DNA of 64,000 nucleotides from Escherichia coli (GTDB lineage Bacteria; Pseudomonadota; Gammaproteobacteria; Enterobacterales; Enterobacteriaceae), in the NCBI RefSeq assembly GCF_003991155.1, contig NZ_CP031293.1. One strand, given 5' to 3'. Below the pieces are notes generated by a model. The model worked only from the letters and a program-made list of their open reading frames with translations, was not told the DNA's origin and did no database searches. Made by a program: the position numbers and the translations under genes. This document shows positions 3,933-47,523 of this stretch, piece after piece (position 1 is the first letter of the stretch; the number at the start of each line of letters is the position of its first letter).

Positions 3933-4135
3933 CACGTCCTCCTCACAATCTTATCCGTAACCGGCTTTTTGCATTAAAAAAACAACGCTGAAAATTCAGC
4001 CGTCAGTCCGGAGACGACAGTCGGGTTATCTCAGAGTGCCTGAGATATTGCCTGGTTGGAGATCACTTCAGGGACTCTGCGCATTTTTTACGGCGTGGTT
4101 AATCCGTATGAACGAAACCATACGGAGATTTAACC

Positions 4136-4705
4136 ATGACCTACAAATACAACCCCTTCTGGCAGCAACGTATTCGTGAGACGGTGCGGCACGCACTGGA
4201 TGTTCATCCCCGTCTGACGGCATTGCGGGTTGATCTGCGTCTCCCGGATGTACCGGCAGCAACGGACGCGGCTGTGATATCCCGCTTCATCAATGCCCTG
4301 AAAGCCCGAATCGACGCTTACCAGAAACGTAAGCATCGGGAAGGTAAACGCGTGCATTCCTCGACCCTGCATTACGCCTGGGCCCGGGAGTTCGGGGAGC
4401 TTAAAGGCAAAAAACACTATCACCTGCTGCTGCTGGTCAACCGGGATACCTGGTGTCGTGCCGGCGATTACCGCGCTCCGGGGTCACTGGCCGGAATGAT
4501 TAAACAGGCGTGGTGCAGTGCCCTGGGAGTGGATGTCGGGTGCCATGCCACGCTGGTGCATTTTCCGGCCTGGCCGGCGGTGTGGCTGGAACGCGATGAT
4601 GATGCTGGTTTACGGGATATGCTGAAGCGTGCTGACTATCTCGCGAAAGAGTACACCAAAGTCAACGGTACCGGTGAGCGCAATTTTGGCTGTAGCCGGA
4701 GTTGA
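4136..4705 (+). CDS. YagK/YfjJ (inovirus Gp2-like) family protein
   Basis: GGAGA ribosome-binding site before ATG 4136. Blocks ISRFI, KRKHREGKRV, KHYHLLLLVNRDTWC, GDYR, SLAG, AWCSALG, LVHF, YLAKE and the C-terminal RNFGCSRS match my recollection of the YfjJ/YagK family found in CP4-type and P4-like islands. Confidence 0.55.
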   Translation: MTYKYNPFWQQRIRETVRHALDVHPRLTALRVDLRLPDVPAATDAAVISRFINALKARIDAYQKRKHREGKRVHSSTLHYAWAREFGELKGKKHYHLLLLVNRDTWCRAGDYRAPGSLAGMIKQAWCSALGVDVGCHATLVHFPAWPAVWLERDDDAGLRDMLKRADYLAKEYTKVNGTGERNFGCSRS

Positions 4706-4964
4706 GCACGACTGGCGCGCCAATATCCGGCAAACCAAAAGTATGGGTTGTTGTCTGGCGGCAACGATGTATCCACTCGCCCACTGACTGTTTTTTACGT
4801 CAGTGTTCCATTGTGTGACAACCACAGTGCTGTAACAGCAACCAGCCTGCTTTACCCAAACTCCAGTCCAGATTTTAACTGAACCGCCATTCACACCCTG
4901 ACCACGCTGCCCGTACCGGGACGGCTGTTGCCTGCGTGTCGTCTGACGGTAAGGAACATATACT

Positions 4965-5366
4965 ATGTACGCAAAATCCTTTCTCGCTCTTGATAGCAAC
5001 GGACGTCTGACGGGCGCCCGTACTGCACAGGCCGCACCTTATGCTCACTACACCTGCCACTTGTGTGGCAGTGCACTCAGATACCATCCGCAATACGACA
5101 CTGAACTTCCCTGGTTTGAACACACTGACGACAGGCTGACAGAGCACGGTCAACAGTGCCCTTATGTCAGGCCGGAGCGCAGAGAAATACAGTTGATTAA
5201 ACGTCTGCAGCAATTCGTACCGGATGCCTTACCCGTGGTGCGTAAAGCCAGCTGGCACTGCAGACAATGTCACCACGATTATTATGGGGAGCAGTACTGC
5301 ACAAACTGCCAGACCGGAGGATTCAGTATTCCCCGGACAACTCAGGAGGAAATATGCGAATTCTGA
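4965..5366 (+). CDS. Zinc-ribbon protein with a CoiA-like N-terminal CxxC...PWFEH motif (paralog 1)
   Basis: AAGGAA ribosome-binding site before ATG 4965. Motifs CHLCGSAL...PWFEH and C-terminal CRQCHH...CTNCQTGG indicate two Cys4-type metal sites. Confidence 0.5.
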   Translation: MYAKSFLALDSNGRLTGARTAQAAPYAHYTCHLCGSALRYHPQYDTELPWFEHTDDRLTEHGQQCPYVRPERREIQLIKRLQQFVPDALPVVRKASWHCRQCHHDYYGEQYCTNCQTGGFSIPRTTQEEICEF

Positions 5367-5788: not shown

Positions 5789-6790
5789 TGGTTGCCTCCG
5801 GAGCAGTTTGCGGTAATGCCGTTCCCGGGAATGGATTGCCAGTGCGGGGACTGTGGAGCTTAATTCCGGTGTTGGTGGCCTTTCCGTTGATTTTGAGCCA
5901 ACAGCCCTCCTGTGACTGACAGGCTGCCTCGTCATTCCATTCGTATCTCCAGTAACAGGGGGTTGTATTGTATTTTAATGTGCCGGTTCAGGCGTGCGTT
6001 TCCCGGCGCGTCTGCACCGGCTTAACCAAATTCAACAGGGATAAAATAGTGTAAATAACCGAAGTATTACTTGAAGAATCGGGGGAAGCATCCGGGGTTT
6101 TATTCAACAGGCATGGGAGGCTCCGGCTCTGACAGACATTGTACTGTGGAATGTTGTTACAGGTTGGGGCGGCAACCGTGCCAGGAGACCATGAGCCGTT
6201 CACGGCATTAAAGGCCACACTTCAGTCGTTTACATTCCCTGTGGTGGCAGGCATCTTCCGTTAAGGCGTCAGAGCGTTACCAACGTTATGTTGTCATGGC
6301 TCACCTTTCATAGTCGATGCTTATCTGGTGACTGAAACTAGCCGCAGATAAAGAGTGTGAAGTTGATACCATGGAGTGGAGTGACGTGCAGGCAGGAGAT
6401 TCGCTCTATGCAGGGTTGTGAGATGAATTCAAACCGGCTGTCAGCGCCAGTAATATTTGAAGATTCGTCCGGTTGTTATCCAGTGTGCATTAAAAACCCA
6501 GACATTATGGACAATACAACGGCTTCCATAACAGGGAGGAGCCTGTTTATTATCCGGGCGTAATGACTAACCTTTGTGGGCTTTTTCCCGTCGTGCTTTT
6601 AACGTTGAAGGCATTTTCTGCCTGCCGATTCAGGACAGCGACAAAAGCCATATCAGACTATTGGTCAATGATGACCAGCGTCTGGAGTAGATGATAAGCC
6701 AAATTGATAAACTGGAATATGTGATGAAAGTGCAACGTAATCAGTCCAATCCGACGATGTTTAACAAGAGTACGGTGTTTTTTCAGTAAG

Positions 6791-7573
6791 TCATTCGTCT
6801 TCTGAATCAGGTGTAATGATCTTTACAGAAGCATTCCGGCAGTGCGTAACATAATCTGCCGGTAACGGACGCTCGCTAATCAGAACATCAAATGCAGAGA
6901 GCGGTGCGAGGCTGGCAGAGGCTACTTCATCGAACAAGGCGTGGCGGGCGAGCAAAATTTTCCTTAGTCCACGGGCCATCGCTTTACGCTTAGTGGCAAG
7001 ATCTTCGGGATTAAACCAGCTGACGCCAAAGTGATCATGTACACCGCTGGCGGAAATAAATATTTTTCGCGGATTGAGAGAGTCTAATGGCGAAGAGTTA
7101 CTGGCATCGTAAAAAGCATCACTTCTGGCACGATACGTACCACCACAAAGTATTGCTGTCACATTAGGTTTTTCATTCAACGCAACAAAGACACGATGTG
7201 AGTAACAGATGCCAGTGAAGGTGATTGCATCCGGGATCATGCTTATAACGAGCGGTATCTCCTGGCCATTATCAAAGAAGATCAGATCATTTTCATTAAC
7301 CATTCCGGCGGCCAGAATTGCAATAGGTAAGTCATCACGATGATTTCTCGGAACGTCCTGGATTACTGGCATGGATGGTGCGGGTTTATGCACCATTACA
7401 ATATAGCCACCCAGTAGGGTCAGTGGCAGAGGTTCATCTTCCTGATGGAGATCGCGACGAATAGTCATTACAGAAACTTCCAGCATTCGTGCCGCGTCTT
7501 TCAAATGGATTCTGTCGGTTTTCTTAAGTATTTCAATCAAACGTCGGATACGCTCTTTTTGCTTCGTTTCCAT
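6791..7573 (-). CDS. deoQ: DeoR-family transcriptional repressor of the deoxyribose operon
   Basis: N-terminal helix-turn-helix (ERIRRLIEILKK...LKDAARMLEVSVMTIRRDL) plus DeoR-type sugar-binding domain, divergent from a deoK-deoP-deoX operon. ATG at 7573 has a GGAGAG ribosome-binding site; the ORF-track start at 7576 is a TTG. Confidence 0.8.
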   Translation of the reverse strand: METKQKERIRRLIEILKKTDRIHLKDAARMLEVSVMTIRRDLHQEDEPLPLTLLGGYIVMVHKPAPSMPVIQDVPRNHRDDLPIAILAAGMVNENDLIFFDNGQEIPLVISMIPDAITFTGICYSHRVFVALNEKPNVTAILCGGTYRARSDAFYDASNSSPLDSLNPRKIFISASGVHDHFGVSWFNPEDLATKRKAMARGLRKILLARHALFDEVASASLAPLSAFDVLISERPLPADYVTHCRNASVKIITPDSEDE

Positions 7574-7588
7574 CAACTCTCTCCGTAA

Positions 7589-7608
7589 AATGTTATAAAA
7601 ATAACATT
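7589..7608. promoter_or_regulatory. Inverted repeat AATGTTAT-AAAA-ATAACATT in the deoQ/deoK divergent control region; candidate operator
   Basis: 8-bp arms with a 4-bp spacer read directly from the sequence; TGTTAT-like motifs recur closer to deoK (about 7810-7850). Assigning it to DeoQ is inference. Confidence 0.3.
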
Positions 7609-7875
7609 ATGGCATTAGTAAACATTGTTTTAGTTACCATACTATACGACCGACCCTTTGAAATGAAAAGGGTATAGACTGCTGAATTTTCGGTATTAAT
7701 CCTGTTAGGTTGCTTATGATTAGATAGTGTTAGCCTGAGTGATAAGACTGGAAGTCTATTAAATAAACATCGGGTTGATGTGCTAATCGCGATCTCAGTC
7801 ACAAATGATGCAAAAGTAACATGCTAATGTTATTTAAATACCATTGTTATGCGAAAGTTTATAAGAGGTAGTGAA

Positions 7876-8796
7876 ATGGACATTGCAGTTATTGGTTCCA
7901 ATATGGTGGATCTCATTACTTACACTAATCAGATGCCTAAAGAAGGAGAAACTCTGGAAGCACCTGCCTTCAAAATCGGATGTGGTGGGAAAGGTGCTAA
8001 TCAAGCGGTGGCGGCGGCTAAATTGAATTCAAAAGTCCTGATGCTGACTAAAGTAGGTGATGATATTTTTGCGGATAATACTATTCGTAATCTCGAATCA
8101 TGGGGAATTAATACCACTTATGTTGAGAAAGTCCCCTGTACCAGCAGTGGTGTTGCACCGATCTTTGTTAATGCCAACTCGAGCAATAGTATATTAATAA
8201 TTAAGGGAGCGAATAAATTTCTTTCCCCGGAAGATATCGATCGAGCTGCAGAAGATCTGAAAAAATGCAAATTGATCGTTTTACAACTGGAAGTTCAACT
8301 GGAAACAGTTTACCACGCGATTGAGTTTGGTAAGAAAAATGGTATTGAAGTGTTATTAAATCCGGCTCCGGCATTGCGTGAGTTAGATATGTCTTATGCC
8401 TGCAAATGTGATTTCTTTATCCCGAATGAAACAGAACTGGAAATATTAACCGGTATGTCGGTTGATACTTATGATCATATTCGTTTGGCCGCACGTTCGT
8501 TAGTTGATAAAGGGCTGAACAATATTATTGTTACCATGAGCGAAAAAGGCGCATTATGGATGACCCGCGATCAGGAAGTCCATGTTCCTGCATTCAAAGT
8601 AAATGCTGTTGATACTAGTGGCGCTGGTGACGCATTTATTGGTTGCTTTTCCCATTATTATGTTCAAAGCGGTGATGTTGAAGCCGCTTTGAAAAAAGCC
8701 GCTCTCTTTGCCGCTTTCAGCGTCACAGGGAAAGGTACGCAATCATCTTATCCGAGTATTGAACAATTTAATGAATTTTTAACCTTAAACGAATAA
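7876..8796 (+). CDS. deoK: Deoxyribokinase (ribokinase/PfkB family)
   Basis: PfkB-family motifs (GGKGANQAVAAA; DTSGAGDAF). ATG at 7876 after an AGAGGTAG ribosome-binding site gives the 306-aa length I recall for DeoK; gene order deoQ / deoK-deoP-deoX. Confidence 0.85.
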   Translation: MDIAVIGSNMVDLITYTNQMPKEGETLEAPAFKIGCGGKGANQAVAAAKLNSKVLMLTKVGDDIFADNTIRNLESWGINTTYVEKVPCTSSGVAPIFVNANSSNSILIIKGANKFLSPEDIDRAAEDLKKCKLIVLQLEVQLETVYHAIEFGKKNGIEVLLNPAPALRELDMSYACKCDFFIPNETELEILTGMSVDTYDHIRLAARSLVDKGLNNIIVTMSEKGALWMTRDQEVHVPAFKVNAVDTSGAGDAFIGCFSHYYVQSGDVEAALKKAALFAAFSVTGKGTQSSYPSIEQFNEFLTLNE

Positions 8797-8823
8797 TCAT
8801 CCTGCACAGTTAAAGGTAGCACT

Positions 8824-10140
8824 ATGAACGATAAAAACATCATTCAGATGCCTGATGGGTATCTGAATAAGACTCCCTTGTTCCAGTTTATTTTGTTATC
8901 GTGTTTATTCCCGCTATGGGGATGCGCAGCTGCATTAAATGACATATTAATCACTCAATTCAAAAGTGTATTTTCGCTAAGTAACTTTGCTTCAGCATTG
9001 GTGCAGAGCGCATTTTATGGAGGTTATTTTTTAATTGCAATACCAGCATCCCTTGTGATTAAAAAGACCAGTTATAAGGTGGCAATTTTAATTGGCCTGA
9101 CGCTGTATATTGGTGGTTGTACACTTTTTTTCCCTGCCTCGCATATGGCAACCTACACTATGTTCCTTGCAGCTATTTTTGCGATTGCGATTGGCCTGAG
9201 TTTCCTTGAAACTGCAGCGAACACATACAGTTCAATGATCGGTCCAAAAGCCTATGCCACATTGCGGCTCAATATCAGCCAGACCTTTTATCCGATTGGT
9301 GCTGCGTCTGGTATTTTATTGGGCAAATATCTGGTTTTCTCCGAGGGGGAAAGCCTTGAAAAGCAGATGTCAGGAATGAACGCCGAGCAAATTCACAACT
9401 TTAAGGTGCTGATGTTAGAGAACACCCTTGAACCGTATAAGTATATGATTATGATTCTGGTTGTGGTCATGGTGTTGTTCCTTTTAACCCGCTTCCCAAC
9501 CTGTAAAGTGGCACAGACAAGTCACCATAAACGCCCGTCAGCAATGGATACGCTGCGCTATCTAGCTAGAAATCCGCGCTTTCGTCGCGGTATTGTGGCG
9601 CAGTTCCTTTATGTGGGTATGCAGGTCGCAGTATGGTCATTTACCATCCGTCTGGCGCTGGAGTTGGGCGATATCAACGAACGTGATGCTTCAAACTTCA
9701 TGGTCTATAGCTTTGCCTGCTTCTTTATTGGCAAGTTTATAGCCAATATCCTTATGACGCGTTTTAATCCGGAAAAAGTATTGATTCTCTATTCCGTTAT
9801 AGGGGCGCTGTTCCTGGCATATGTTGCACTGGCTCCAAGTTTCAGCGCGGTCTATGTCGCCGTCCTGGTAAGTGTTTTGTTTGGCCCTTGCTGGGCGACG
9901 ATCTATGCAGGAACACTGGATACAGTTGATAACGAACATACAGAAATGGCAGGAGCAGTCATTGTTATGGCTATTGTCGGTGCCGCGGTGGTTCCGGCAA
10001 TTCAGGGATATATTGCAGATATGTTCCACTCACTACAGCTTTCATTCCTGGTTTCTATGCTCTGCTTTGTCTATGTCGGAGTCTACTTCTGGCGTGAAAG
10101 CAAAGTACGTACCGCACTGGCTGAAGTCACAGCGTCCTGA
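8824..10140 (+). CDS. deoP: Deoxyribose permease (FucP-like MFS transporter)
   Basis: 438-aa polytopic membrane protein with fucose-permease-like features, immediately downstream of deoK. Confidence 0.85.
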   Translation: MNDKNIIQMPDGYLNKTPLFQFILLSCLFPLWGCAAALNDILITQFKSVFSLSNFASALVQSAFYGGYFLIAIPASLVIKKTSYKVAILIGLTLYIGGCTLFFPASHMATYTMFLAAIFAIAIGLSFLETAANTYSSMIGPKAYATLRLNISQTFYPIGAASGILLGKYLVFSEGESLEKQMSGMNAEQIHNFKVLMLENTLEPYKYMIMILVVVMVLFLLTRFPTCKVAQTSHHKRPSAMDTLRYLARNPRFRRGIVAQFLYVGMQVAVWSFTIRLALELGDINERDASNFMVYSFACFFIGKFIANILMTRFNPEKVLILYSVIGALFLAYVALAPSFSAVYVAVLVSVLFGPCWATIYAGTLDTVDNEHTEMAGAVIVMAIVGAAVVPAIQGYIADMFHSLQLSFLVSMLCFVYVGVYFWRESKVRTALAEVTAS

Positions 10141-11204: not shown

Positions 11205-11383
11205 TAAGCGCGTTTTTTACCCGCCAGGACAAGACTATGATAGCGTTGCCCTTATAGACGATCACATTATCGTCCACTCCAAATTTGCGCAACTACTGTA
11301 GAGTGGTGTACTCCACAGCTTCTTTGAGGAGCTTAACCTCCATTGTTTTCTTACCGAGCAAGCACTGCAACTCTTTTATTTAT
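11205..11383. repeat. About 180-bp segment, copy A of a direct repeat (second copy at 37163..37348, roughly 90% identity by eye); IS-associated
   Basis: Shared strings include GACAAGACTATGATAGCGTTGCCCTTATAGACGATCACATTATCGTCCACTCC and AACTACTGTAGAGTGGTGTACTCC. Copy B encodes, on the minus strand, the 3' end of an IS3/IS66-type OrfA-like gene. Confidence 0.6.
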
Positions 11384-27700: not shown

Positions 27701-28654
27701 ACGGGAGAGCTGGCAGCCAGAGCGATTGCCGGAATGCTGTATCCGGGAGTGAAGCAGTCAGACCTCAGTGAAGAGCAGAAGCAGACGATAAGTACGCTGG
27801 CAACTGTGTCAGCAGGGCTGGCCGGCGGTCTAACCGGAAACAGCACCGCATCAGCAGCAGTGGGAGCACAGAGCGGGAAGAATGCTGTTGAGAATAACTA
27901 CCTGAGCGTGTCTGAAAAGACAGAACTTGAGATAGCAAAACAGACGCTTAAAAACAGTAAAGATCCGGCAGAGCGTGAAAAGGCACAGCAGAAATATGAT
28001 GCATTGCTTGAAAAAGATATTGCCAGTGATAAGGAGGTTATTGCTGCCTGTAGTAATGGTAATGCGAGTAGTTCAGCGTGTGCCAGCGCAAGACTGAAAG
28101 TTATTGCGTCGAAAGAAGGGTACGAAGATGGCCCTTATAACTCGAAATACAGCCAGCAATACGCTGATGCGTATGGTCAGATAGTCAATCTCCTCGATAT
28201 CACCAGTGTTGATGCACAGAATCAGCAGCAGGTGAAAAACGCCATGATTAACTATTTCATGGTCACCAAAGGGGTGGATCGTCAGACCGCAGAAAGCTAC
28301 ACCGAAACAACGCAGGGCTTGGAGATCATTGCGGCTTCGGTAACGCCTCTTATAGGGCAAGCTGCATCAAATAAATTAAGCTACCTTGGTATTGGGAAAA
28401 AGATATCCTTTGATGGTGATTTTTATACTGTAGATGGAATGAAATTCAGCAAAAGTTATTATGAGAAATTATGGGAGCAAGGCAGACCTGCGCCATTCGT
28501 GCAAGCAAGAGAAGTGTTGAATAGCAATCCAAAAATTGAGCCGGATCCTAGAGGCGCACCTGGCTACTTAAGATATGAAGGTGCAGGTCTTGAAATGATC
28601 TATAACCCGAAAACGGGACAAGTTGGTCATATTCAACCAGTCAAGGTTAAATAA
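18788..28654 (+). CDS. cdiA: Contact-dependent growth inhibition exoprotein CdiA (3288 aa)
   Basis: N-terminal two-partner-secretion transport domain ([27 protein letters not shown]), long filamentous-haemagglutinin-type repeat tract, glycine-rich pre-toxin region and the VENN motif ([15 protein letters not shown]) about 255 aa from the C-terminus. Confidence 0.9.
27887..28654 (+). other. CdiA-CT toxin region (VENN to stop); enzymatic class unassigned
   Basis: VENN codons at 27887..27898, in frame with cdiA. The final domain (...[33 protein letters not shown]...GHIQPVKVK) matches no toxin I can name and does not end in GYGI. Confidence 0.7.
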
Positions 28655-28667
28655 AAAGAGGAAGTAA

Positions 28668-28988
28668 ATGGATATTTGGCCTGAATTTCAACGAGATCTT
28701 GAGATGTATCGAGATGTTGTTTTATCAATAAAACGTAACCTTCGGTTGTATGAGGAGTGTATTGAATCGTTAGTTCATCAGATCGGAAGCACCAATTTTG
28801 ATAATGCGCAGCCTCTATTTGATGACCTCTTTCGTATGCAATCTGAACTTGCTACTATGTTATACAAATATGAATATAAGCCAGGAAAAAGGATACAAGA
28901 TTTAATATATCATCTGGACAGGGATGATTTTTACTCAAGAAAATATTGGCATAAAAAATTCAGTGATGGATTGGCATGGCCTGAATAA
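28668..28988 (+). CDS. cdiI: Putative CdiI immunity protein cognate to the CdiA-CT
   Basis: 106-aa ORF starting 13 bp after the cdiA stop with an AGAGGAAG ribosome-binding site; visibly more AT-rich than cdiA, as expected for an exchangeable toxin/immunity cassette. The assignment is positional. Confidence 0.7.
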   Translation: MDIWPEFQRDLEMYRDVVLSIKRNLRLYEECIESLVHQIGSTNFDNAQPLFDDLFRMQSELATMLYKYEYKPGKRIQDLIYHLDRDDFYSRKYWHKKFSDGLAWPE

Positions 28989-29081
28989 TAGAAGTAGAAA
29001 TCCCGCCCTCAGTTAGCGCTGAGGAATCCCTAGTAATGGGCGGGTAAAAAAGACAGGCATAGAGTTTTGTGATCTACTGAT

Positions 29082-29642
29082 TTGTGCAACCAATTCAATG
29101 AGATCGCTTCTATGCCTGCTCGACAAGTATGTCAGAATTTTTTCCACGATGCGTTAGCACCGTTTCACAAATACCGACAAAATGCTTTGCTGGATGCCAC
29201 CATCGCTCTCATCAATGGCGCATCACTGACGTTGACCAGCATCGGGCGTTATTTACCCGGCTTGGCTCGGGTCAAAAATAAAATCAAACGCGTTGACCGA
29301 CTGCTCGGTAATGAATCTCTTCACCGCGATATCCCACTGATTTTCAATAATATTATTGCCATGCTGACTAGCCAGCTATCTCTTTGTGTCATCGCCGTTG
29401 ACTGGAGTGGATATTCATCTCAGGAGCATCATGTGCTCCGCGCCAGCCTGCTCTGCGATGGATGCTCGCTTCCCCTGTTAAGCTGGGTAGTCCCGTCAGA
29501 AAAACAGCAGAACTCGCAGATACAAAAAAACTTCCCAGATGCCCTTGCCGAGGCTGTAAACCCTGTGGCCAGAGTCATAATAGTTACCGATGCGGGTGTT
29601 CTTACCCCCTTATTTCCAGACAGGGGCTGTATCTTAAGTTAA
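29082..29642 (+). pseudogene. IS4-family (IS10-like) transposase, N-terminal fragment only
   Basis: RVKNKIKRVDRLLGNESLH ... VIAVDWSG ... VLRASLLCDG ... IIVTDAGV parallels the IS10 transposase N-terminus (KHNIKRIDRLLGN ... IVLVDWSD ... LRASVALHGR ... IVSDAGF). The frame ends after 186 aa where an IS3-family fragment begins. Confidence 0.6.
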
Positions 29643-29760
29643 CATTACCCGCTGACGTCGATATTCTCGCGGAGAGCGATAACCCAACGCACTATGCGGA
29701 TGGTTTTCATTGTAATGCTCGATCGCCACTGCAAGGTTTATATTGCCTGTTCATCGATCA
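29637..29760 (-). mobile_element. IS3-family transposase (OrfB) C-terminal fragment
   Basis: The minus strand encodes ...[35 protein letters not shown], the conserved C-terminal signature of IS3-family integrase-core transposases. Upstream frames are broken by stops. Confidence 0.55.
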
Positions 29761-30219
29761 TCAATCTCGTGAACTGTGAGACGAAACAGCGTACACTGTT
29801 TGAACGTATCTACTTTTCCCAATACTGGGCGAAGGGAGATGTTATTGCGAAGCGCGCTCCAATTAGTCAGTGGGAACCTTATTCGGAAGAGTCACTGCTT
29901 GTCATCATCGTCACCAGCGTCTGTCGTATTAAAGTCGCGATGCTAAAACCTGAACCTCCCAGAGATCCCCATATCCCGCTAATGGGGGATTTTAACTAAA
30001 ACTTAGCGCTATCGCTGCATATTGTAACTATCCCGCATCACGTATGCATAAATTATGACGCCATACGGGGAACAAATACACAGAGGAAGAAAAAGATTAG
30101 ATTGGTTTTAAGGGATTTTTTATCATAAATGGCGCTGCTAAAATTATGAGATTATCGAAGATAAAATTCTTGATCATACATAAAAGGCCTCCTGAATTAA
30201 ATCAAGAGGCGTATAGTTT

Positions 30220-31338
30220 TTATATTACTGATGTATGTTTAATGATCTCACTGATTTTCACTTTCCTGTCCTGCGATCTTGAAAGAGTGGCAGCATCAGC
30301 AGTAGCAATCGCCGACATGGCCGCCTCACCATTGAGAAGGTCAATATAATCTTCTTCAGGTTTTGCACCACTGAGGATATTATGGAGGAATAACGTCTCC
30401 TTTCTTATTAAACTGGCAAGCCATAATGGTGTTTTTTTTCCAGGATGACCATATGCTATAGCGCCATCCATTTCTGAGGTCATATTGCCTTTCCGACGAT
30501 CATCATCTTCTTCTTGTGTTTCATGGACCAAAAAATGCTTTGTCTGACCGCCAATCCTAAGTGACCCTGCTGTTTCTTGCATATCAATTTTAATAGAGCC
30601 TTTAGTTCCATTGATGATGACATAATGTTCTGGCCAGTTAAATGCACTCCCCCACTCTAAGGTTGCTAGTTTTCCTGACGGGAATTCCAAGGTCATAAAT
30701 AACATATCATCTTCATTGCCAAACCCTAGACCAGAATGAGCTAAATTTCCACCAATCATAGTAACCGTCTCTGGTATTTCTCCAAGTAAATGCTGAACAC
30801 AATCTAACTCATGTATATGATGATATAGATGTCCACCAGATTGTTCTTTCATCTTTTTCCAGGAAAGTCTCTCCTGTTTGTTTTCCCAGCCATTTCTCTT
30901 GGTATGACATGATAATATTTCGCCGATAACACCTTCTTTAATTAACTTCCGTGCATATTGAACTCCATTGAAAAAATTCATAATATGCCCAGCCATAAAG
31001 GTCACACCAGCTTCTTTACACGCTTTGACCATATCCACACAATCTTCATAACTTAATGCAATTGGTTTTTCACAAAAAACATGCTTCTTATTCTTTGCTG
31101 CTTTAATTACTGGATCTTTATGCAGATAATTTGGGGTGGCTACGATCACACAATCGACTAATTTACTTGAAACTAAAGCATCCAAGCTTGACATATTGAT
31201 ACATTGCAATTCACGGGCAATAGTTTCTCCATTTTCAGGATCGTATACACATGTAATTTTTGCATTATCATGCATATTCATAAAACGAGCTAATTCAGCG
31301 CCAAAGTATCCAACACCAACAACGCCATAATTAATCAT
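30220..31338 (-). CDS. yjhC: Gfo/Idh/MocA-family NAD(P)-dependent oxidoreductase, YjhC (NanY)-like
   Basis: 372 aa with N-terminal Rossmann motif (GVVGVGYFG); GGAGG ribosome-binding site; immediately downstream of a 405-aa NanT-like MFS gene. Both lengths match my recollection of YjhB/YjhC. Confidence 0.7.
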   Translation of the reverse strand: MINYGVVGVGYFGAELARFMNMHDNAKITCVYDPENGETIARELQCINMSSLDALVSSKLVDCVIVATPNYLHKDPVIKAAKNKKHVFCEKPIALSYEDCVDMVKACKEAGVTFMAGHIMNFFNGVQYARKLIKEGVIGEILSCHTKRNGWENKQERLSWKKMKEQSGGHLYHHIHELDCVQHLLGEIPETVTMIGGNLAHSGLGFGNEDDMLFMTLEFPSGKLATLEWGSAFNWPEHYVIINGTKGSIKIDMQETAGSLRIGGQTKHFLVHETQEEDDDRRKGNMTSEMDGAIAYGHPGKKTPLWLASLIRKETLFLHNILSGAKPEEDYIDLLNGEAAMSAIATADAATLSRSQDRKVKISEIIKHTSVI

Positions 31339-31349
31339 AAAGCCTCCAA

Positions 31350-32567
31350 TTATTTAGCCACGGATAGTTTATAAATTTTACCTGGAATATCAAAACCAAC
31401 TAACAAAATTAATAAGGCAGAGAATGCAACCGTAACAATGAATAATGAAACACCTAAGCCATAATATCTAGAAATGTATGTAGCTAATACAGGTGCGGCC
31501 ATTCCTCCAGTTGCCCCTAAGTTATAAATAAGACCGGTCCCTAATCCTCTTAATTTTGTTGGAAAGTAATCATATATAAATTTTGGAACCAACCCTGCAA
31601 TACCTAAATTTGTAAACATTAATCCAAAGAGACATAATCCTATAAGAAAAGAGTTTTTCACAGAAATAAAAAAAAGAGGACAAAGGAAAATAAATGAAGT
31701 TATTAGACCAACTACAAATGTTTTTTTTACACCAATCTTATCACCAACAAAACCAAAAAATATTGTACCTGTCAGTGTACCTAAACCTGCTATTGTCATC
31801 AGAGTTGAAATAACCACTGTATTAACTCCATTATCTGCTAGGTAGGAAGGAAGTAGTCCGTTTATCGGCCAGTTTGCACCAAATAGACAAAAACAGACGA
31901 GGAAAACGATCATAGAGATTGAAAGATGTGGTTTTCTGAAGACAGACAAAAATGTTGATTTATCCTTATATTTATCTTCAATCCACTCCTGACTTTCTGG
32001 AGCACTTTTTCTGATCCAAAGAACTAGTAAAACTGGTAACAGGCCTATAAAAAAAGAGTTTCTCCATCCATATACTTCAGCAAACTGAGGGATTATTTGT
32101 GCCGCAATAATATTTCCAACAGAAAAACCACTTACCAAAAAAGCACTAGCTTTAGATTGAAGATTTTTAGGCCAACTTTCTACTGCATAAGTTGAAGCAC
32201 ATGCATATTCACCAGACATCCCTAAGCCAACAATAAAACGGCAAACTGCGAGCATATATAAGTTTGTAGCAATACCGCTAAGGCCTGTTCCGACTGAGTA
32301 AATGATAATTGCCCACATCATCATTGGCTTACGCCCATATTTATCAGCCATGGCACCAAAAAAACCGCCCCCAATAGGTCTGGCTATGAAGGCCACTGTC
32401 CCTATTAAAGTGGCCTGAATATCCGTAATGCCAAGATCTGCTTTTATAATATGAAGAATGTAAAATATCATCATAAAATCAAAGCCATCAAATACATATC
32501 CAAGCCATGCAGAAAAAAGAGCTTTCCGTTGTGGTGGATTAACTTGTTTATACCATACTGTTGCCAT
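31350..32567 (-). CDS. yjhB: MFS transporter of the sialic acid (NanT) family, YjhB (NanX)-like
   Basis: Start placed at ATG 32567 (MATVWYKQ...) with an AGGAAA ribosome-binding site, giving 405 aa. Major-facilitator-superfamily signature; a NanR-type operator lies upstream. Confidence 0.7.
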   Translation of the reverse strand: MATVWYKQVNPPQRKALFSAWLGYVFDGFDFMMIFYILHIIKADLGITDIQATLIGTVAFIARPIGGGFFGAMADKYGRKPMMMWAIIIYSVGTGLSGIATNLYMLAVCRFIVGLGMSGEYACASTYAVESWPKNLQSKASAFLVSGFSVGNIIAAQIIPQFAEVYGWRNSFFIGLLPVLLVLWIRKSAPESQEWIEDKYKDKSTFLSVFRKPHLSISMIVFLVCFCLFGANWPINGLLPSYLADNGVNTVVISTLMTIAGLGTLTGTIFFGFVGDKIGVKKTFVVGLITSFIFLCPLFFISVKNSFLIGLCLFGLMFTNLGIAGLVPKFIYDYFPTKLRGLGTGLIYNLGATGGMAAPVLATYISRYYGLGVSLFIVTVAFSALLILLVGFDIPGKIYKLSVAK

Positions 32568-32976
32568 ATTTGTTTCCTGTGTTATTCTAATACAGCCCTT
32601 AAAGTAAATATTAGGGAGCCTCAACAATATCCAGCAATAATTATATTGTCTTCAAATACGCCAGTACTATTAATTGTTATCAATACCTAATCAGTACAAT
32701 CTTTTTCTCCATTTCTTCTTAACATATTTCACGCTATGAAAGATAAAACTGATACCCACCTTCAGTTTTGGGTCACCATCAAAAAAAATGTTCGCCAGAT
32801 ATTCCACCACTGGCACAGTTCAACCCTGCTTCAAAAATTGACTTATTCATTGTGCTCATTTTCGTAGTCCGTTCAGGTTGAATAAAACTCCCTTAGTCAA
32901 ATGAGGAAAGACTGAGAGGTTATTACTTTAGCTTACGTTATAGCTGTTTTCCTTTGCAGTATTTCTTTGCTTTTCT

Positions 32977-33000
32977 GTATACCTTTATACCTGTTATACC
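32977..33000. promoter_or_regulatory. NanR-type operator: three GGTATA hexamers (minus strand reads GGTATAACAGGTATAAAGGTATAC)
   Basis: Read directly from the sequence, about 410 bp upstream of the yjhB-like start. The tri-repeat GGTATA arrangement is the known NanR binding architecture. Confidence 0.5.
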
Positions 33001-33597
33001 AGATCAAAAAACAAGCAATCCACATAACAAAACGCGTTTTGTTACTGATGTCACAAATTGAGCATATTTTTGTATCTGATAGTTTGTTACAAACACCACA
33101 ACCAAGATGCCTATTTCGTTTCAGCATCAACTGTTAAATTATCTGGTTGCCAACGAGAATACTGAGCTTTTTTGTCCCTAAGACTGACCGTCAACGCAAC
33201 AATCTTTGACTGTTTGACATTGTCATGCCCGCAGGCCAGCGGATCTAAAGACATCAGACTGCTTGCATCAGCCAGTTGCGTATCTGGCTATGTCCCTTAA
33301 TTGGTAAGGGTTCGAGGAACTCAACATTAACGCATTTTTCAGCGCATCACCGACAGTGTATATGAACGATTGCACTCTGACGATGGTTGATTTATTTGGT
33401 TGCATAGGGGCTAGCTAGTCTGGTACCGGAGGCTGGATCTGAAGTACTGACCCTAGGAATAACGCCGGGCTGACTCATATTCTGACCCATTGTCAGCCCG
33501 CGTGTTTACTGCTCTAGCTCATTTCCTGTTGTCAGGCATTCAATTCCCAACTGCAGGTTATGGCCCGGTGAGCGAACACCTGACGGCAGGTATCACT

Positions 33598-33775
33598 CAC
33601 CCGGAGAAGGTAAATCCCTCAAGGGGCAGCAACTCTGCCAGTCGCTCCTCCGGCCACTCCGGCAGACGTGTCAGGACGTCTGTCAGCCAGGCATGTGGCT
33701 CCAGACCGTTGCGTTTCGCGGTTTCCAGCAAGCTCATTATTTGCGCAGCGCGTTCTCCCGCCATACGACAGCCGT
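33598..33775 (-). mobile_element. IS66-family transposase (TnpC) C-terminal fragment
   Basis: The minus strand encodes ...GERAAQIMSLLETAKRNGLEPHAWLTDVLTRLPEWPEERLAELLPLEGFTFSG*, paralleling the C-terminus of the intact IS66 TnpC in this window (...[40 protein letters not shown]...). Confidence 0.5.
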
Positions 33776-33797
33776 CAGAGCAGTGCGTCAGCGGGCG

Positions 33798-35642
33798 GCA
33801 GTTTTACCTGGGGTGCTGGCAGAGGTGGTTATGGCAGCGCCAGCCGCGATAATATCCACAGCAACTATGATTCCGTTAATGAGCAGAGCGGTATTTTCGC
33901 AGGCCGGGGTTATTTTGATATCACTGTGGGGAATCACACTCAGCTCGATGGTGCGGTGATTGCTTCGACAGCACCTGCCGACAGGAACTCGCTGGACACC
34001 GGTACTCTGGGCTGGTCGGATATCCATAACCAGGCAGACTATAAAGCCAGCTATACCGGAATCAGTTTATCGGGTGGCTCAGGGATGTCAGCCAGCCAGA
34101 TGGTGGCCTCAAATGCAATAGCCGGTGCGGCGAACGCACTTACCGGTATGTCCGGCAGCAGTGGACATGCTGAAGGTACCACGTCATCCGCCATCAGCGG
34201 CGGAAATCTCATTATCCGTGATAAGGAGAGTCAGAAGCAGGATATTGCCGGGCTCAGCCGGGACCCGGAAAACGCCAACGGCAGCATTGCACCGATATTT
34301 GACAAGGAGAAAGAACAGAAGCGTCTGCAGGAAGCGCAGGTTATCAGCCAGATTAGCGGTCAGATGAGTAATATCGTAATGACGTATGGCGAAACTGAAG
34401 CGATGAAAGCAGCCTGGAAAGAGCATCCTGGCATGAGCGATGCACAGTTGCGGGAGACTCCGGAATACAGAGAGGTCATGAAAGGCTACGGTACGGGCAG
34501 TTCGCCGCAGATGGTGGTACAGGCCATCACGGGCGTGCTGGGCGGACTGAATGCAGGGAACCCGGGGCAGGTATTGGCGGGCGGTCTGAATCCGGCAGTG
34601 GCACAGCTTATAAAACAGTCCACCGGCGATAACCGGGAAGCAAACCTGATGGCTCACGCAGTCTGGGGTGCACTTGCCGCACAACTGGGCGGAAACAATG
34701 CGGCTTCCGGTGCTGCTGGGGCATTCAGTGGTGAACTTGCAGCCTGGTATATCATTGATAACTACTACGGTGGTCGTACCGATAACCTGAGTGAACAGGA
34801 ACGTCAGCAAATCAGCATGCTGGCCACCATTGCCTCTGGTATTGCGGGGGGACTTGCAGGCAACAGTACGGCGTCTGCCGGTACGGGTGCACAGGCAGGA
34901 ACTCGGCTGAAAACAATATGCTGAACGTGATAGCCACTGAAACAGCAGCTAATACGGCAGCAGCAATAGCTGGTGCTACAGGTAATGCCAGTAAGGATAC
35001 CGGGAATGATAATAGCTGGGATACCGGTGGTGTTACGCTGGCTACGGGAACAGTGTGCTGTACGTGATCCGAGTCGCGATGGCACCCGAGGACCGGGGCA
35101 TGTGCTGAATGGCGACAATACAGACGGAAACAAACAGCCGAATCTGGGCAAAGACGTAGCGAGCGCAACGGATAAGGATAAAGCTGAGCTTGGTGGTGCA
35201 GGTGCTGGAATACCGGGGGGGATGGGGACCGGATAATGAAGAAAAAGCCCGTCATCAGGAGGTTCAGCAACAACGATTTGATGAACTGAGTAAAATATAT
35301 GATAAAAGTCACCCGGCCGGAGAGTTAACGGTGGATGGGCAGACTATCAGGCAGAGTTCGGTAAGTAACCGTTATGGTACGACGAAAGTGTTTGAAAGCC
35401 AGACTTTGACGGATAAACAGATCCACAATTACGCACAGCAACTGGCAGGCGATACACCGCTGAAAGAGGTAAAATCGGGAATCTACACGTCTAAACTATC
35501 AGATGGTTCGGTAATAACACTTAGAAACATATCTACATCAGAAGGTCAGACAGGCGCTCGTTGGACTATAGATATTCGTAATAACCAAAAGCTTACTGAA
35601 CTGGGGAATAAATATTCACGTGTGGAGATTAAGTTCAAATGA
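33798..35642 (+). pseudogene. Orphan cdiA-CT module 1: displaced 3' fragment of a cdiA gene with frameshifts
   Basis: DNA and protein homology to the pre-toxin region of the main cdiA begins at about 33798 ([51 protein letters not shown]). The VENN-equivalent (AENN, 34906..34917) lies in a different frame from the upstream ORF, and the toxin part is split over at least three frames. Confidence 0.6.
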
Positions 35643-35995
35643 TTACTGAGTTAAGTGAAAGAGAATACAAGGAGTTGACAGACGCTGCAGAGGGACAGAC
35701 TCTTGATGCTATTTTGTGTTATTCAGTTCCTGATATTCACCCTGCAGAGTTTAGTTTTGCAGATAGAAGAGAAATCTTTTTTTGGGCATTAACCCGTCTT
35801 CTGAAAGAAGGGCGTATCAAACTCGCCAAGCACGGTAAGTTTTTGGAAGGAAGTGTTGACGAGCAGGTTGAGCGTTTTCGACAGGCATTTCCGAAAACAG
35901 AAGAAGAGATGGAAGACGGTATCTGGTTTTTTGATGAGAGTTGTCCGGGGGGGGCTGTTTGGGTGCTTGAAGATGGCTCTCTCGAATGGACCTGA
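35639..35995 (+). CDS. Putative orphan CdiI immunity protein (module 1)
   Basis: Intact 118-aa ORF whose ATG overlaps the stop of the orphan toxin frame (ATGA overlap), the arrangement typical of toxin/immunity pairs. Acidic small protein; no family recognised. Confidence 0.55.
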
Positions 35996-37112
35996 TAACC
36001 CCTTCACAGCGCAGGATGCGGCGCAGCGAGCGTATAACAACGATATGGCGGCCTCAGTTTTTGGTACCGGAGGGAACGATACAGGCTACAACGGCAGCGG
36101 TACAGGGACTGGCCGGCGGTAATCTGAGTGCAGCCCTGGCAGGTGGTGCAGCACCGTATCTGGCCGAAGTGGTGAAAACCATGACCACAGACCCGGTTAC
36201 CGGTGAGGTGAATAAGGCTGCAAATGTGGCTGCTCATGCCGTGGTGAATGCCGCACTGGCTGTGGCACAGGGAAATAACGCTCTTGCCGGTGCTGTAGGT
36301 GCAGCCACCGGCGAGGTGGTGGGAATGATAGCCACACAGATGTACGGTAAGCCGGTGAGTGAACTGAGCGAGACAGAGAAGCAGACGGTCTCGACACTGG
36401 CAACGGTTGCTGCTGGCCTGGCCGGTGGTCTGGTGGGCGACTCGGGGCTTCAGCGGTAGCCGGCGCACAGTCAGGTAAGACGACTGTTGAGAATAATTTA
36501 CTTGGCGGTAGTGAAGATGCTCAGGCTGCGTGGATACGCCAGCATGGTATCGACATGGCAACATGTGCAGAAAACCCTTCTGGTGCCGCCTGCCAGAAAG
36601 CAATGAATGAGAGGGATGCTGTAGGGCTGGCTCTGGCAACAGGTACAGTGGCACTACTCCCCGGTAGTGCTCAGGCTGTGTGGGGACTGGGAGCAAGTGC
36701 GAATGCTGGTATCAGTTATCTGGCTGATGGTACTGTAGATCCGACAAACGCAGCCATTGCAGGCTGGGTGAATGTGTTCAGCATGGGTAATGGCCTGGCG
36801 GGGACTGTGGGCTGGAATGCGGCAGGTGGTGCGCTGGGTAACTGGATTGACAACAAAGATCCTCTGTCTGGTGCAATTTCAAATGGTATCGGTTCTGCTG
36901 CCGGGTATGGTATCGGTAAAGGTATTACTTGGGGGACAGATAATATTACGAATGCTGTAGGAAAATGGGTGACAAATGGCTGGGATCCTAAGTACGATCC
37001 AACATGGATAAAATATGCTGAAGTAAATCGTAACGATATCATTCGAGAAGGCATGAAACCGAGCAATGTTCTTGGAACTGCTGGAGATATTGGCGGTTCT
37101 ATAGGATCCTAG
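35996..37112 (+). pseudogene. Orphan cdiA-CT module 2: cdiA 3' fragment with a frameshift; glycine-rich predicted membrane-active C-terminal domain; no immunity gene follows
   Basis: Homology to the main cdiA pre-toxin region ([28 protein letters not shown] ... [20 protein letters not shown]) runs up to a VENN motif (TTVENNLLGG) reached only after a frameshift near 36455. The C-terminal roughly 185 aa are Gly/Ala-rich with GxxxG-like spacing. Confidence 0.5.
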
Positions 37113-37162
37113 CTAGGTGGAAAAGTAACTTAGTCTGCAAGGATCAGGAGTTACAGACGGCA

Positions 37163-37348
37163 TTGGCTTTACGCTTACCGTTTTTTTACGCGCCAGAACA
37201 AGACTATGATAGCGTTGCCCTTATAGACGATCACATTATCGTCCACTCCGACTTTGCGCAACTACTGTAGAGTGGTGTACTCCGCGGCTTCTTTGAGGAT
37301 CTCAACTTCCATGTTTTTTTACCCAGCAAGGGCTGTAACTCTTTTATT
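37163..37348. repeat. About 180-bp segment, copy B of the direct repeat (copy A at 11205..11383)
   Basis: See copy A. Here it overlaps the 3' end of the minus-strand OrfA-like gene 37231..37644. Confidence 0.6.
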
Positions 37349-37644
37349 TTTATAGCGGCAGCCAGTTCTGAGGCAGGAACAACATCCTCTCCGGTAGTAA
37401 CAGCAGCGAGACTTCCTTCCAGGTATTGTTTTTTCCACTTAAACAACAGACTGGGCTGAATACCATGCAAATGCGCCACATGGGACACCCTCATGCCAGG
37501 CTCCGTTGTCTGCTGAATAATGGCAATTTTTTCCTGAGGAGTTTTACGTTTACGAAGCTCCTGCCCCAGCAAAGTTCCAGTTATCTCAAAATTAGAACTA
37601 GTGTTAGACATATATCCAAGCCTATCTCTTATTTTAAGATACAT
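37231..37644 (-). mobile_element. IS3/IS66-type helix-turn-helix transposase accessory gene (OrfA-like), probably remnant
   Basis: HTH_Tnp-type region ([44 protein letters not shown]). A run of seven A (GGTAAAAAAACATGG) near the 3' end resembles a -1 frameshift slippery site, but the -1 frame ([16 protein letters not shown]) stops after 16 codons, so no transposase catalytic ORF follows. Confidence 0.5.
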
Positions 37645-37671
37645 CCACTGTCTGGCGTTTCAAGGGGCGCT

Positions 37672-38037
37672 TCAAGTTTTTTCAGACAGTTGAACTAGTA
37701 TACCAATACATTCTTGTTCAGCATCAATGATACATGCTTGGTATGTCGGGAAAAAAACAGAGGTTTCTTTTACAATATATCCACAATCATAACATTGATA
37801 CCATTTCCAGCCTTTTTCCTGAATATAGGAAATATGTAGAAAAAGTGGCAAGACCGATTCGTCTGAGTATCCCTGTTTTTTAGCATTTTCAATGCATAAC
37901 AATTGCGAATTATATGCGTTATCTGATTGAGACAAAAGATATCCATTTTTCTCATGACAATACCATCTCCATTTATTGTCATCAGTCTTATAAAATTTCC
38001 ATATTAATCTCTGATTTCCAGATATCTTATAAATCAT
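37672..38037 (-). CDS. YegP/DUF1508-like small protein (tandem repeat fold), hypothetical function
   Basis: ATG at 38037; the ORF-track start at 38049 is a GTG. Two repeats of the pattern W(K/R)W...NG...(S/A)...Y (RLIWKFYKTDDNKWRWYCHEKNGYLLSQSDNAY and KGWKWYQCYDCGYIVKETSVFFPTY). AT-rich gene. Confidence 0.45.
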   Translation of the reverse strand: MIYKISGNQRLIWKFYKTDDNKWRWYCHEKNGYLLSQSDNAYNSQLLCIENAKKQGYSDESVLPLFLHISYIQEKGWKWYQCYDCGYIVKETSVFFPTYQACIIDAEQECIGILVQLSEKT

Positions 38038-45951: not shown

Positions 45952-47523
45952 ATGGACACCTCACTTGCTCATGAGAACGCCCGCCTGCGGGCACTGTTGC
46001 AGGCGCAACAGGACACCATCCGCCAGATGGCCGAATACAATTGCCTGCTCTCACAGCGGGTGGCGGCTTATGCTTCTGAAATCAACCGGCTGAAGGCGCT
46101 GGTTGCAAAACTGCAGCGCATGCAGTTCGGTAAAAGCTCAGAAAAACTTCGCGCAAAAACCGAACGACAGATACAGGAAGCACAGGAGCGAATCAGCGCA
46201 CTTCAGGAAGAAATGGCGGAAACACTGGGTGAGCAATATGACCCGGCACTGCCATCTTCCCTGCGCCAGTCTTCAGCCCGTAAACCGTTACCGGCTGCAC
46301 TTCCCCGTGAATCCCGGGTTATCCGGCCGGAAGAGGAATGCTGCCCGGCTTGTGGTGGCGAACTCAGTTCTCTGGGATGTGATGTGTCAGAGCAACTGGA
46401 GCTTATCAGCAGCGCCTTTAAGGTTATCGAAACACAACGTCCGAAACTGGCCTGTTGCCGGTGCGACCATATCGTGCAGGCACCAGTACCTTCAAAACCC
46501 ATTGCACGCAGTTATGCCGGAGCGGGGCTTCTGGCTCATATCGTCACCGGGAAGTATGCAGACCATCTGCCGTTATACCGCCAGTCAGAAATATACCGTC
46601 GTCAGGGCGTGGAACTGAGCCGCGCCACGCTGGGGCGCTGGACCAGTGCCGTTGCTGAACTGCTGGAGCCGCTGTATGACGTGCTGCGCCAGTATGTGCT
46701 GATGCCCGGTAAAGTCCATGCGGATGATATCCCCGTTCCGGTCCAGGAGCCGGGCAGTGGTAAAACAAGAACTGCCCGGCTGTGGGTTTACGTCCGTGAT
46801 GACCGTAACGCCGGTTCACAGATGCCCCCGGCGGTCTGGTTCGCGTACAGCCCGGACCGGAAAGGTATCCATCCACAGAATCACCTGGCCGGTTACAGCG
46901 GTGTGCTTCAGGCCGATGCTTACGGTGGTTACCGGGCGTTATACGAATCCGGCAGAATAACGGAAGCCGCGTGTATGGCCCATGCCCGGAGAAAAATCCA
47001 CGATGTGCATGCAAGAGCGCCTACCGATATCACCACGGAAGCCCTGCAGCGTATCGGTGAACTGTATGCAATCGAGGCAGAGGTCCGGGGATGTTCAGCA
47101 GAACAGCGTCTGGCGGCAAGAAAAGCCAGAGCTGCGCCACTGATGCAGTCGTTGTACGACTGGATACAGACTCAGATGAAAACACTGTCGCGTCACTCGG
47201 ATACGGCAAAAGCGTTCGCATACCTGCTGAAACAGTGGGGTGGCCTGAACGTGTACTGCAGTAATGGCTGGGTGGAAATCGACAACAACATCGCAGAGAA
47301 CGCCTTACGGGGAGTAGCCGTAGGCCGGAAAAACTGGCTGTTCGCAGGTTCCGACAGCGGTGGTGAACATGCGGCGGTGTTGTACTCGCTGATCGGCACA
47401 TGTCGTCTGAACAATGTGGAGCTAGAAAAGTGGCTGCGCTACGTCATTGAGCATATCCAGGACTGGCCGGCAAACCGGGTACGCGATCTGTTGCCCTGGA
47501 AAGTTGATCTGAGCTCTCAGTAA
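45952..47523 (+). CDS. IS66-family transposase TnpC
   Basis: 523 aa with N-terminal coiled-coil/leucine-zipper region, CxxC...CxxC zinc motif (CPACGG...CCRCDH) and DDE core; conserved C-terminal ...[23 protein letters not shown]... Confidence 0.85.

Follow-up and report, generated by a model that had tools for sequence, protein, structure and literature searches.

Insertion sequence remnants and their junctions downstream of an NC101-type cdiI gene in Escherichia coli

In Escherichia coli, cdi loci are found on mosaic genomic islands, and their orphan regions typically carry transposase or integrase genes (PMC4927057); transposases are not mentioned in Poole et al. (2011; PMC3150448). One and the same toxin/immunity module can be the primary one in one strain and an orphan in another (Ruhe et al., 2016; PMC4927057). 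The locus analyzed here lies in a stretch of 64,000 nt from E. coli contig NZ_CP031293.1 (assembly GCF_003991155.1), in the following termed the window. It is an ordinary instance of the already known, IS-rich orphan pattern, and its transposase fragments have already been annotated as pseudogenes. Its practical value lies in exact junction markers for how a mosaic island was assembled. These markers show the NC101 module with a fixed 3' tag, being primary in some lineages and the terminal orphan in others, and the apparently secondary attachment of a distal array corrects the natural view of neighboring orphans as ends displaced from the cdiA next to them.

NC101-type toxin module and adjoining insertion sequence remnants

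From the window, the following features can be deduced around the 3' end of the cdi locus.

27887-28654, plus strand: cdiA-CT, NC101-type toxin, reaching from VENN to the stop codon; its left edge is that of the module shared with genomes having it as an orphan
28668-28988, plus strand: cdiI, NC101-type immunity gene (ORF; match to PDB 5I4Q chain B over residues 1-106, E 9.6e-72)
28989-29018: spacer of 30 nt between cdiI and the first IS, from comparison of flanks across independent insertion sites
29019-29596, plus strand: 5' 578 bp (44%) of an IS10-group, IS4-family IS (NF033591 match; alignment to L003, L007, L011 and L019; RefSeq pseudogene)
29597-29738, minus strand: ISEc48-type right end of 142 bp, comprising the whole terminal inverted repeat TGTTCTTACCCCCTTATTTCCAGACAG plus the final 35 codons of orfB (stop at 29634-29636)
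29739-29750: filler of 12 nt of unassigned origin, between the end of ISEc48 homology at 29735-29738 and the start of K-12 homology at 29751

The junctions are designated J1 (29018/29019), J2 (29596/29597), J3 (29738-29751) and J5 (33764/33765). Both CdiI and the CdiA C terminus match PDB entries 5I4Q and 5I4R, with cdiA-CT corresponding to chain A of 5I4Q and also matching 6VEK in the PDB search; 5I4Q is the CdiA-CT/CdiI/EF-Tu complex of E. coli NC101 (PMC5737660). An identity with the UPEC 536-type toxin was considered as well and dropped, the PDB search indicating the NC101 type instead. The VENN motif is at residue 3034 of CdiA, equivalent to nucleotide 27887, and homology of the module to strains SMBL and JNEC-KY175 and to metagenome loci L023/L024 begins at 27883-27887, exactly at the VENN codons.

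The IS10-like element starts at C29019, 30 nt past the cdiI stop (28988), with an intact left inverted repeat (CTGAGGAATCCCTAGTAATGG, 29019-29041). For comparison, intact or near-intact copies were available from loci L003/L004, L007, L011 and the metagenome locus L019 (1314 bp), from which a full length of about 1313 bp with repeats at both ends can be deduced; nucleotide identity to the window stub is 87% for L003/L004 and 95-97% for L007 and L011. No right end is present anywhere in the window, which leaves a remnant without a complete inverted-repeat pair, and a search for the missing 3' half gave no second match in the window. A pseudogene annotated as 'IS4 family, missing N-terminus' downstream in strain PSUO2 was likewise considered as this half and rejected, as it shows no homology. 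A 9-bp target duplication is found in the relatives, complete in L007 (GCCGTAGCG on both sides) and at 7 of 9 positions in L003; the window copy has no right end. Because of the flank comparison and the duplication in L007, the 3' end of the spacer is read as a target copy, presumed to be its last 9 nt (CAGTTAGCG, 29010-29018). The terminal repeat of the IS10-like element, CTGAGGAATCCCC, resembles the IS10 end, CTGATGAATCCCC.

The L003/L004 copy (4005-5317, between rtT and narI) encodes an intact 399-aa IS10-like transposase, WP_001111618.1. About 314 genomes, that of strain 536 included, have a copy of it with 80-90% identity, and the two copies examined share one chromosomal site. With its target duplication degenerate (7/9), the insertion looks old, though its ORF is intact.

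The preliminary description placed an IS10-like transposase gene 94 bp after cdiI and had it cut off after 186 codons by an oppositely oriented IS3-family OrfB tail. A 186-aa ORF with TTG start is indeed present at 29082-29642 on the plus strand, and its product matches NCBIfam NF033591 (IS4-family transposase) over profile positions 1-127 of 340 (E 2.6e-34). The element itself, however, begins only 30 nt after the cdiI stop, and the transposase likely starts at ATG 29112, since the intact 399-aa relative and RefSeq use the equivalent codon. Transposase homology ends at G29596, 161 codons from this ATG, at TDAG (second catalytic Asp), and the last 15 codons of the ORF are read-through into the IS3-type inverted repeat. 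The DDE triad is thus incomplete in the stub, the Glu-carrying region and most of the DDE domain being missing. Owing to this truncation, the score against NF033591 is only 118.9 bits, below the full-length cutoff of 152 bits, while the intact relative (87% identical) reaches 336.6 bits and matches PF01609 in addition. In RefSeq annotation of identical genomes, the transposase at 29019-29596 is a pseudogene ('IS4 family transposase, missing C-terminus'). The label IS10-like is backed by the match to the IS4-family model, but the nearest named elements are, by protein identity of the intact relative, IS10A with 37.7% and ISVsa5 with 35.6%; judged by these values, the name holds only loosely, at the subgroup level, and the element is a distinct one.

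As for the interrupting IS3-family piece, its opposite orientation and a true IS end were borne out, but it comprises the complete terminal repeat as well (29597-29738) and not just an orfB tail. The minus-strand peptide (29634-29738) matches Pfam rve_3 (PF13683) with 30.6 bits (cutoff 26.5) and positions 257-289 of 301 of NF006918 (NCBIfam IS2 TnpB; E 4.4e-13); in RefSeq, identical genomes carry here an opposite-strand pseudogene, 'integrase core domain-containing protein, missing N-terminus'. The presence of IS4- and IS3-family fragments downstream of cdiI is hence confirmed by NF033591, by rve_3 and IS2 TnpB, and by the RefSeq pseudogenes. The stub is 97% identical to an intact copy (L009, 2501-2639). 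Position 29597 is a true IS end because both the end of the L009 copy and the end of the curated 'ISEc48 partial' feature of O157 Sakai coincide with it. The programmed -1 frameshift between orfA and orfB, annotated as such in the intact L009 copy, is absent from the window fragment. Homology to ISEc48 ceases at 29735-29738, and the filler joining the ISEc48 interior to the K-12-like block is, as judged from these alignments, an illegitimate junction.

It might be argued that the truncated transposase ORF (29112-29642) has been retained as a functional gene, encoding a DNA-binding regulator or a module-linked accessory factor, as it is open in every examined copy, always linked to cdiI, and predicted by gene callers to give a 176-aa product. 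However, such linkage is expected anyway for DNA 30 nt away, the fragment does not match any Pfam domain, and the source of the C-terminal 15 residues differs by lineage (IS3 inverted repeat versus IS66 sequence). Moreover, comparison of window-type with SMBL-type copies gives the stub a pN/pS of about 0.74, estimated from only 14 substitutions (nucleotide identity 98%, with 10 amino acids altered over 161 codons), as against 0.16 versus the intact relative, which fits relaxed constraint since truncation. A retained function is accordingly regarded as highly improbable. The IS fragments are, with a good deal of confidence in the nested-scar explanation as a whole, non-functional scars, and nothing points to a role in CDI. 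Neither tRNA genes nor Rfam families were found in the region, and a promoter and terminator scan of the region revealed only the own terminator of nanY.

Arrangement types and the breakpoint at 29596

The segment 28990-30220 recurs with 100% identity in 66 complete RefSeq genomes, strain NC101 included. In all of the complete genomes with this cdiI (73/73), terminal-orphan cases included, the IS10-like stub directly follows it, and each of 10 further assembled exact-CdiI contexts shows the order cdiI, stub, Adhesin_E fragment, nanY, nanX and PT-VENN with identical junctions. J1 to J3 are identical throughout the 66 complete genomes, 7 metagenome contigs and the 10 further assemblies. An empty site after cdiI or a complete IS10-like element at this position was found neither in the 5426 complete genomes nor in the 10 exact-CdiI contexts. 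The same gene order free of IS sequences, by which the arrangement would be ancestral according to the preliminary description, was sought, and IS debris was present in 73/73 complete genomes and 10/10 CdiI contexts. Three arrangement types can be distinguished.

Type W (window), 66 complete genomes: NC101 module fused to the main cdiA
Type S, strains SMBL and JNEC-KY175 and metagenome L021: main cdiA with another toxin, NC101 module as last orphan
Type W', metagenome L023/L024: NC101 module an orphan as in type S, followed by the ISEc48 stub and the nanXY block as in type W

Strain C10 is of type W with an additional ISEc12 insertion. In type S, the stub end abuts internal sequence of an IS66-family tnpC, CGGG microhomology being seen at the junction, and a TolC/T1SS cluster is found about 4 kb beyond this junction; in PSUO2, which is of type W, the cluster is about 31 kb away. 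In type W' (L024), the nanXY block is followed on its right by a complete ISEc49 and then by unrelated genes without orphans, and because of this arrangement J1 to J3 are considered older than the junction between ISEc49 and the distal cdiA (cdiA'). A complete ISEc48 nested at 29597 was not found in the complete genomes or metagenome contigs.

Some further observations concern the surroundings. In L023, a 201-nt left-end stub of ISEc49 (1759-1959) abuts a 5'-truncated cdiA at the equivalent of window position 27705; the whole array therefore appears to be orphaned in the L023 lineage. In the right part of the window, a 523-aa ORF (45952-47523) shows 78% nucleotide identity to the SMBL IS66-family tnpC fragment and probably represents an IS66-family element that is intact. 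The window diverges from PSUO2 at positions below about 14781 and above about 44342.

Both in W/W' and in S, G29596 is the last base of the stub (to within 1 nt), the partners being unrelated, namely the tip of ISEc48 and the interior of an IS66-family element, respectively. The S-type junction (L005 6587; L016 10350; L021) reads GCGGG/AAGCGCTCC, the intact IS66 sequence AACGGGAG/AAGCGCTCC. Two independent breaks at one base of a 1.3-kb element would be a coincidence of about 0.2% by rough estimate. A third type of partner at 29596 was not detected in the complete genomes or in 13 metagenome contigs; the position is uninterrupted in 5 of 13 metagenome contigs as well as in L007 and L011. The 8-mer TTTCCAGA is the only one common to the intact IS10-like element (L007, L011, L019) and the ISEc48 inverted repeats, and it starts at the first base right of the ISEc48 insertion point (window 29597-29624 compared). 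In a post hoc test, 0.5% of shuffles placed an 8-mer match at a distance of 2 nt or less from the breakpoint. The targeting geometry of IS911 does not match the site at 29597. A targeting of this style via the TTTCCAGA match was consequently rejected, the insertion being at the edge of the 8-mer and not at the position of the pseudo-repeat tip; for IS911 itself, an IS3-family element, targeted insertion is documented (reviewed in PMC7986276).

With regard to the sequence of breaks, the SMBL-type junction between the IS10-like stub and IS66 could be the ancestral one, ISEc48 having later landed exactly on it in the window lineage. As the NC101 module is an orphan in SMBL-type genomes, parsimony suggests that this is possibly the older state, and the CGGG microhomology is typical of spontaneous illegitimate joining. 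On the other hand, insertion at one particular base would be required for no known reason, IS66 sequence does not flank the other side of the ISEc48-derived material in window-type genomes, and the presence of TTTCCAGA both right of the break in the intact IS10-like element, the 3' half of which reads TTTCCAGAGTGC..., and in the ISEc48 repeat hints at an uninterrupted target. An ancestral SMBL-type junction is hence considered unlikely.

Rather, J2 can be attributed to an ISEc48-type transposase, either by simple insertion or by an IS-end-mediated rearrangement, because the break is occupied by an intact ISEc48-type tip. Insertion of ISEc48 followed by decay does not alone explain the S-type break with an IS66 partner at the same base. 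Possibly, ISEc48 came first and a transposase-made break at its tip then seeded the deletion in the S lineage. Rather improbable, though deserving mention, are the proposals that the shared end is the footprint of a break made by transposase at the IS3 tip, leading to a tip-precise deletion with microhomology repair, or that it represents the fixed 3' edge of a portable cassette, from VENN to the stub, moving between cdi arrays.

The K-12-like nanXY block and the distal orphan array

Beyond J3, the window continues with a block also known from K-12, an array of orphan modules and a second IS3-family stub.

29751-29999, plus strand: 5'-truncated protein-E-like (Adhesin_E) gene fragment, covering only positions 53-109 of 109 of PF16747, collinear with K-12
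30053-30177, minus strand: ythA, small ORF (RefSeq annotation of identical genomes and K-12)
30220-31338, minus strand: nanY, from the 2,7-anhydro-Neu5Ac hydratase/MFS transporter operon (ORF, RefSeq name)
31350-32567, minus strand: nanX, from the nanY-nanX operon at 30220-32567 (ORF, RefSeq name, 98% K-12 identity)
33097-33108: empty target site of the K-12 IS4 (insG), the K-12 alignments overlapping by 12 nt either side of insG
33385-33764, minus strand: right-end stub of an ISEc49-type element (IS66 family), 90-97% identical to ISEc49 copies; K-12 shares the stub and retains more of it
33765-37129, plus strand: distal orphan array with 5'-truncated cdiA' and fragmented CT/immunity modules in cdiBAI orientation
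37278-37674, minus strand: second IS3-family stub, left end (IRL and orfA side) with an outward-facing tip at 37674

Segments 29751-33108 and 33097-33706 are collinear with K-12 at 96-98% identity; the K-12 counterpart is the KpLE2 segment, with yjhD, yjhC and yjhB as gene names. The annotated ORF 29694/29715-29999 takes its start from ISEc48 antisense sequence. The protein-E-like fragment is cut at the same base (29751; position 6001 of K-12 locus L002) in more than 2000 K-12-type genomes, its left partner being an MFS fragment plus IS30/IS3 debris in K-12 and the ISEc48 stub in window-type genomes. At 33097-33108, K-12 carries a 1.4-kb IS4 flanked by a 12-bp duplication, and the site is uninterrupted in the window. 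The complete ISEc49 (2.56 kb) of metagenome locus L024 is at 6527-9088.

At 33764/33765, the ISEc49 interior is joined to the 5'-truncated cdiA' heading the distal array. This array shows the hallmarks of orphan regions: downstream of cdiBAI and oriented like it, a 5'-truncated cdiA with VENN precedes ORFs for CT and immunity, with RefSeq annotating VENN pre-toxin pseudogenes over 33926-36515; pieces of the array also occur within full-length cdiA genes of other strains. The earlier statement that IS scars and a nanXY operon lie between the primary locus and the array at 33.8 kb is supported by both the RefSeq annotation and the K-12 alignment. By contrast, the proposed eroded 3' boundary of the cdi locus held only insofar as, in all arrangements found, a contiguous cdi array has the stub at its 3' end; the distal orphans do not belong to the same cdiA, as cdiA' has only about 52% protein identity (52-55% by tblastn) to residues 2636-3030 of the main CdiA and, at the nucleotide level, only one match of 120 nt (77%) to the main cdiA.

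One original cdi locus could nevertheless have been split, the 33.8-kb array once having directly followed cdiI and the nanXY block having been inserted later via IS elements. The orphans are downstream and in the same orientation, the module at 36485-37129 is 96% identical to the one directly upstream of the NC101-type orphan in SMBL and JNEC-KY175 (L005 3949-4593; L016 7714-8358), and outward-facing IS3-type tips (29597 and 37674) bracket the 8 kb consisting of the nanXY block and the orphan array. The low similarity of cdiA' to the adjacent cdiA is at odds with a split locus, as is the L024 unit, in which cdiI, the IS10-like and ISEc48 stubs and nanXY are followed by the complete ISEc49 and unrelated genes, not by orphans; furthermore, the block with its ISEc49 stub is already present in K-12. 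The bracketing ends themselves have different best relatives (97% to ISEc48 versus 93.5% to another IS), are not accompanied by a target duplication and leave IS coordinates 140-934 unaccounted for, so that their reading as a composite transposon or as a split single IS was rejected as well. A split of one ancestral locus thus has little probability. Instead, the distal array appears, on the sequence comparisons, to come from a different cdiA lineage and not to be an eroded continuation of the adjacent cdiA. It would have joined later, by a deletion inside ISEc49, because L024 has the block and a complete ISEc49 without orphans. Since 36485-37129 occupies another position in SMBL-type arrays, module order is evidently permuted between lineages. 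As an orphan, in SMBL, JNEC-KY175 and L023, the NC101 module has kept nucleotide homology to the upstream cdiA that would permit recombination (27705-27899); the distal array has not.

The second IS3-family stub (37278-37674) has the same orientation as the one at 29597 and an intact terminal repeat; it is 93.5% identical to an IS in L014 and 85% to ISEc48 coordinates 935-1329. In addition, a direct repeat of 91% identity is found at 11213-11381 and 37182-37349, about 95 nt of non-IS flank leading in each copy, via the same junction, into the interior of an IS3-type element. The left copy is located past the 3' side of an aldose-1-epimerase gene, at a site that many E. coli have conserved (e.g., EC2 and L015), and the two copies flank about 26 kb including PTS, LacI, cdiBAI, nanXY and the orphans.

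Proposed order of events and comparison with known systems

Overall, the region is in all probability best explained by nested scars of IS activity, which accompany the NC101 toxin/immunity module passively as its 3' tag. The following order of events can be put forward from the handful of arrangement types. An IS10-like element would have inserted after cdiI before the module-carrying lineages diverged, and ISEc48 would then have arrived at 29596/29597. Subsequently, a deletion may have fused the ISEc48 tail to a nanXY block already bearing ISEc49. In the window lineage only, a further deletion from inside ISEc49 would have joined the block to the 3' remnant of another cdiA. Finally, the NC101 module might have become the primary toxin via recombination at the VENN region, or have been displaced to an orphan position in other lineages. 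By this order, the stub would travel with the module as a passive 3' tag.

In common with IS10 and IS10A, the IS4-family element has a DDE transposase falling under the NCBIfam IS4 model and a full length of about 1.3 kb; a 9-bp target duplication with AGC in the target is a further resemblance, seen in relative L007. Unlike IS10A, what is left in the window is a dead 5' stub, its right end and the larger part of the catalytic domain having been lost. ISEc48, an IS3-family element with IS2 TnpB as the nearest NCBIfam subfamily model, matches the IS3-family stub at 97-98.6% nucleotide identity across the terminal 139-142 bp, in which the TG-initiated repeat and the 3' end of orfB are contained, but the window keeps only 142 of about 1330 bp, without orfA, frameshift site or left end. 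Moreover, one repeat base is A in the window versus the canonical G, which L023/L024 retain. The nanXY block corresponds to the K-12 segment yjhD-ythA-nanY(yjhC)-nanX(yjhB) in being collinear and in showing the same protein-E-like truncation and the same ISEc49 stub, whereas K-12 carries insG, another left partner and no cdi genes.

As in described orphan cdiA-CT/cdiI regions (PMC3150448; PMC4927057), a variable region extends past cdiI, with fragmented pairs in the same orientation and interspersed IS remnants, and strains differ in whether they have the NC101 module as the primary one or as an orphan. In contrast to the known orphan regions, a 4-kb block for utilization of sialic acid derivatives is placed between cdiI and the distal array, and this array, belonging to another cdiA lineage, does not provide the upstream homology needed by the recombination model.
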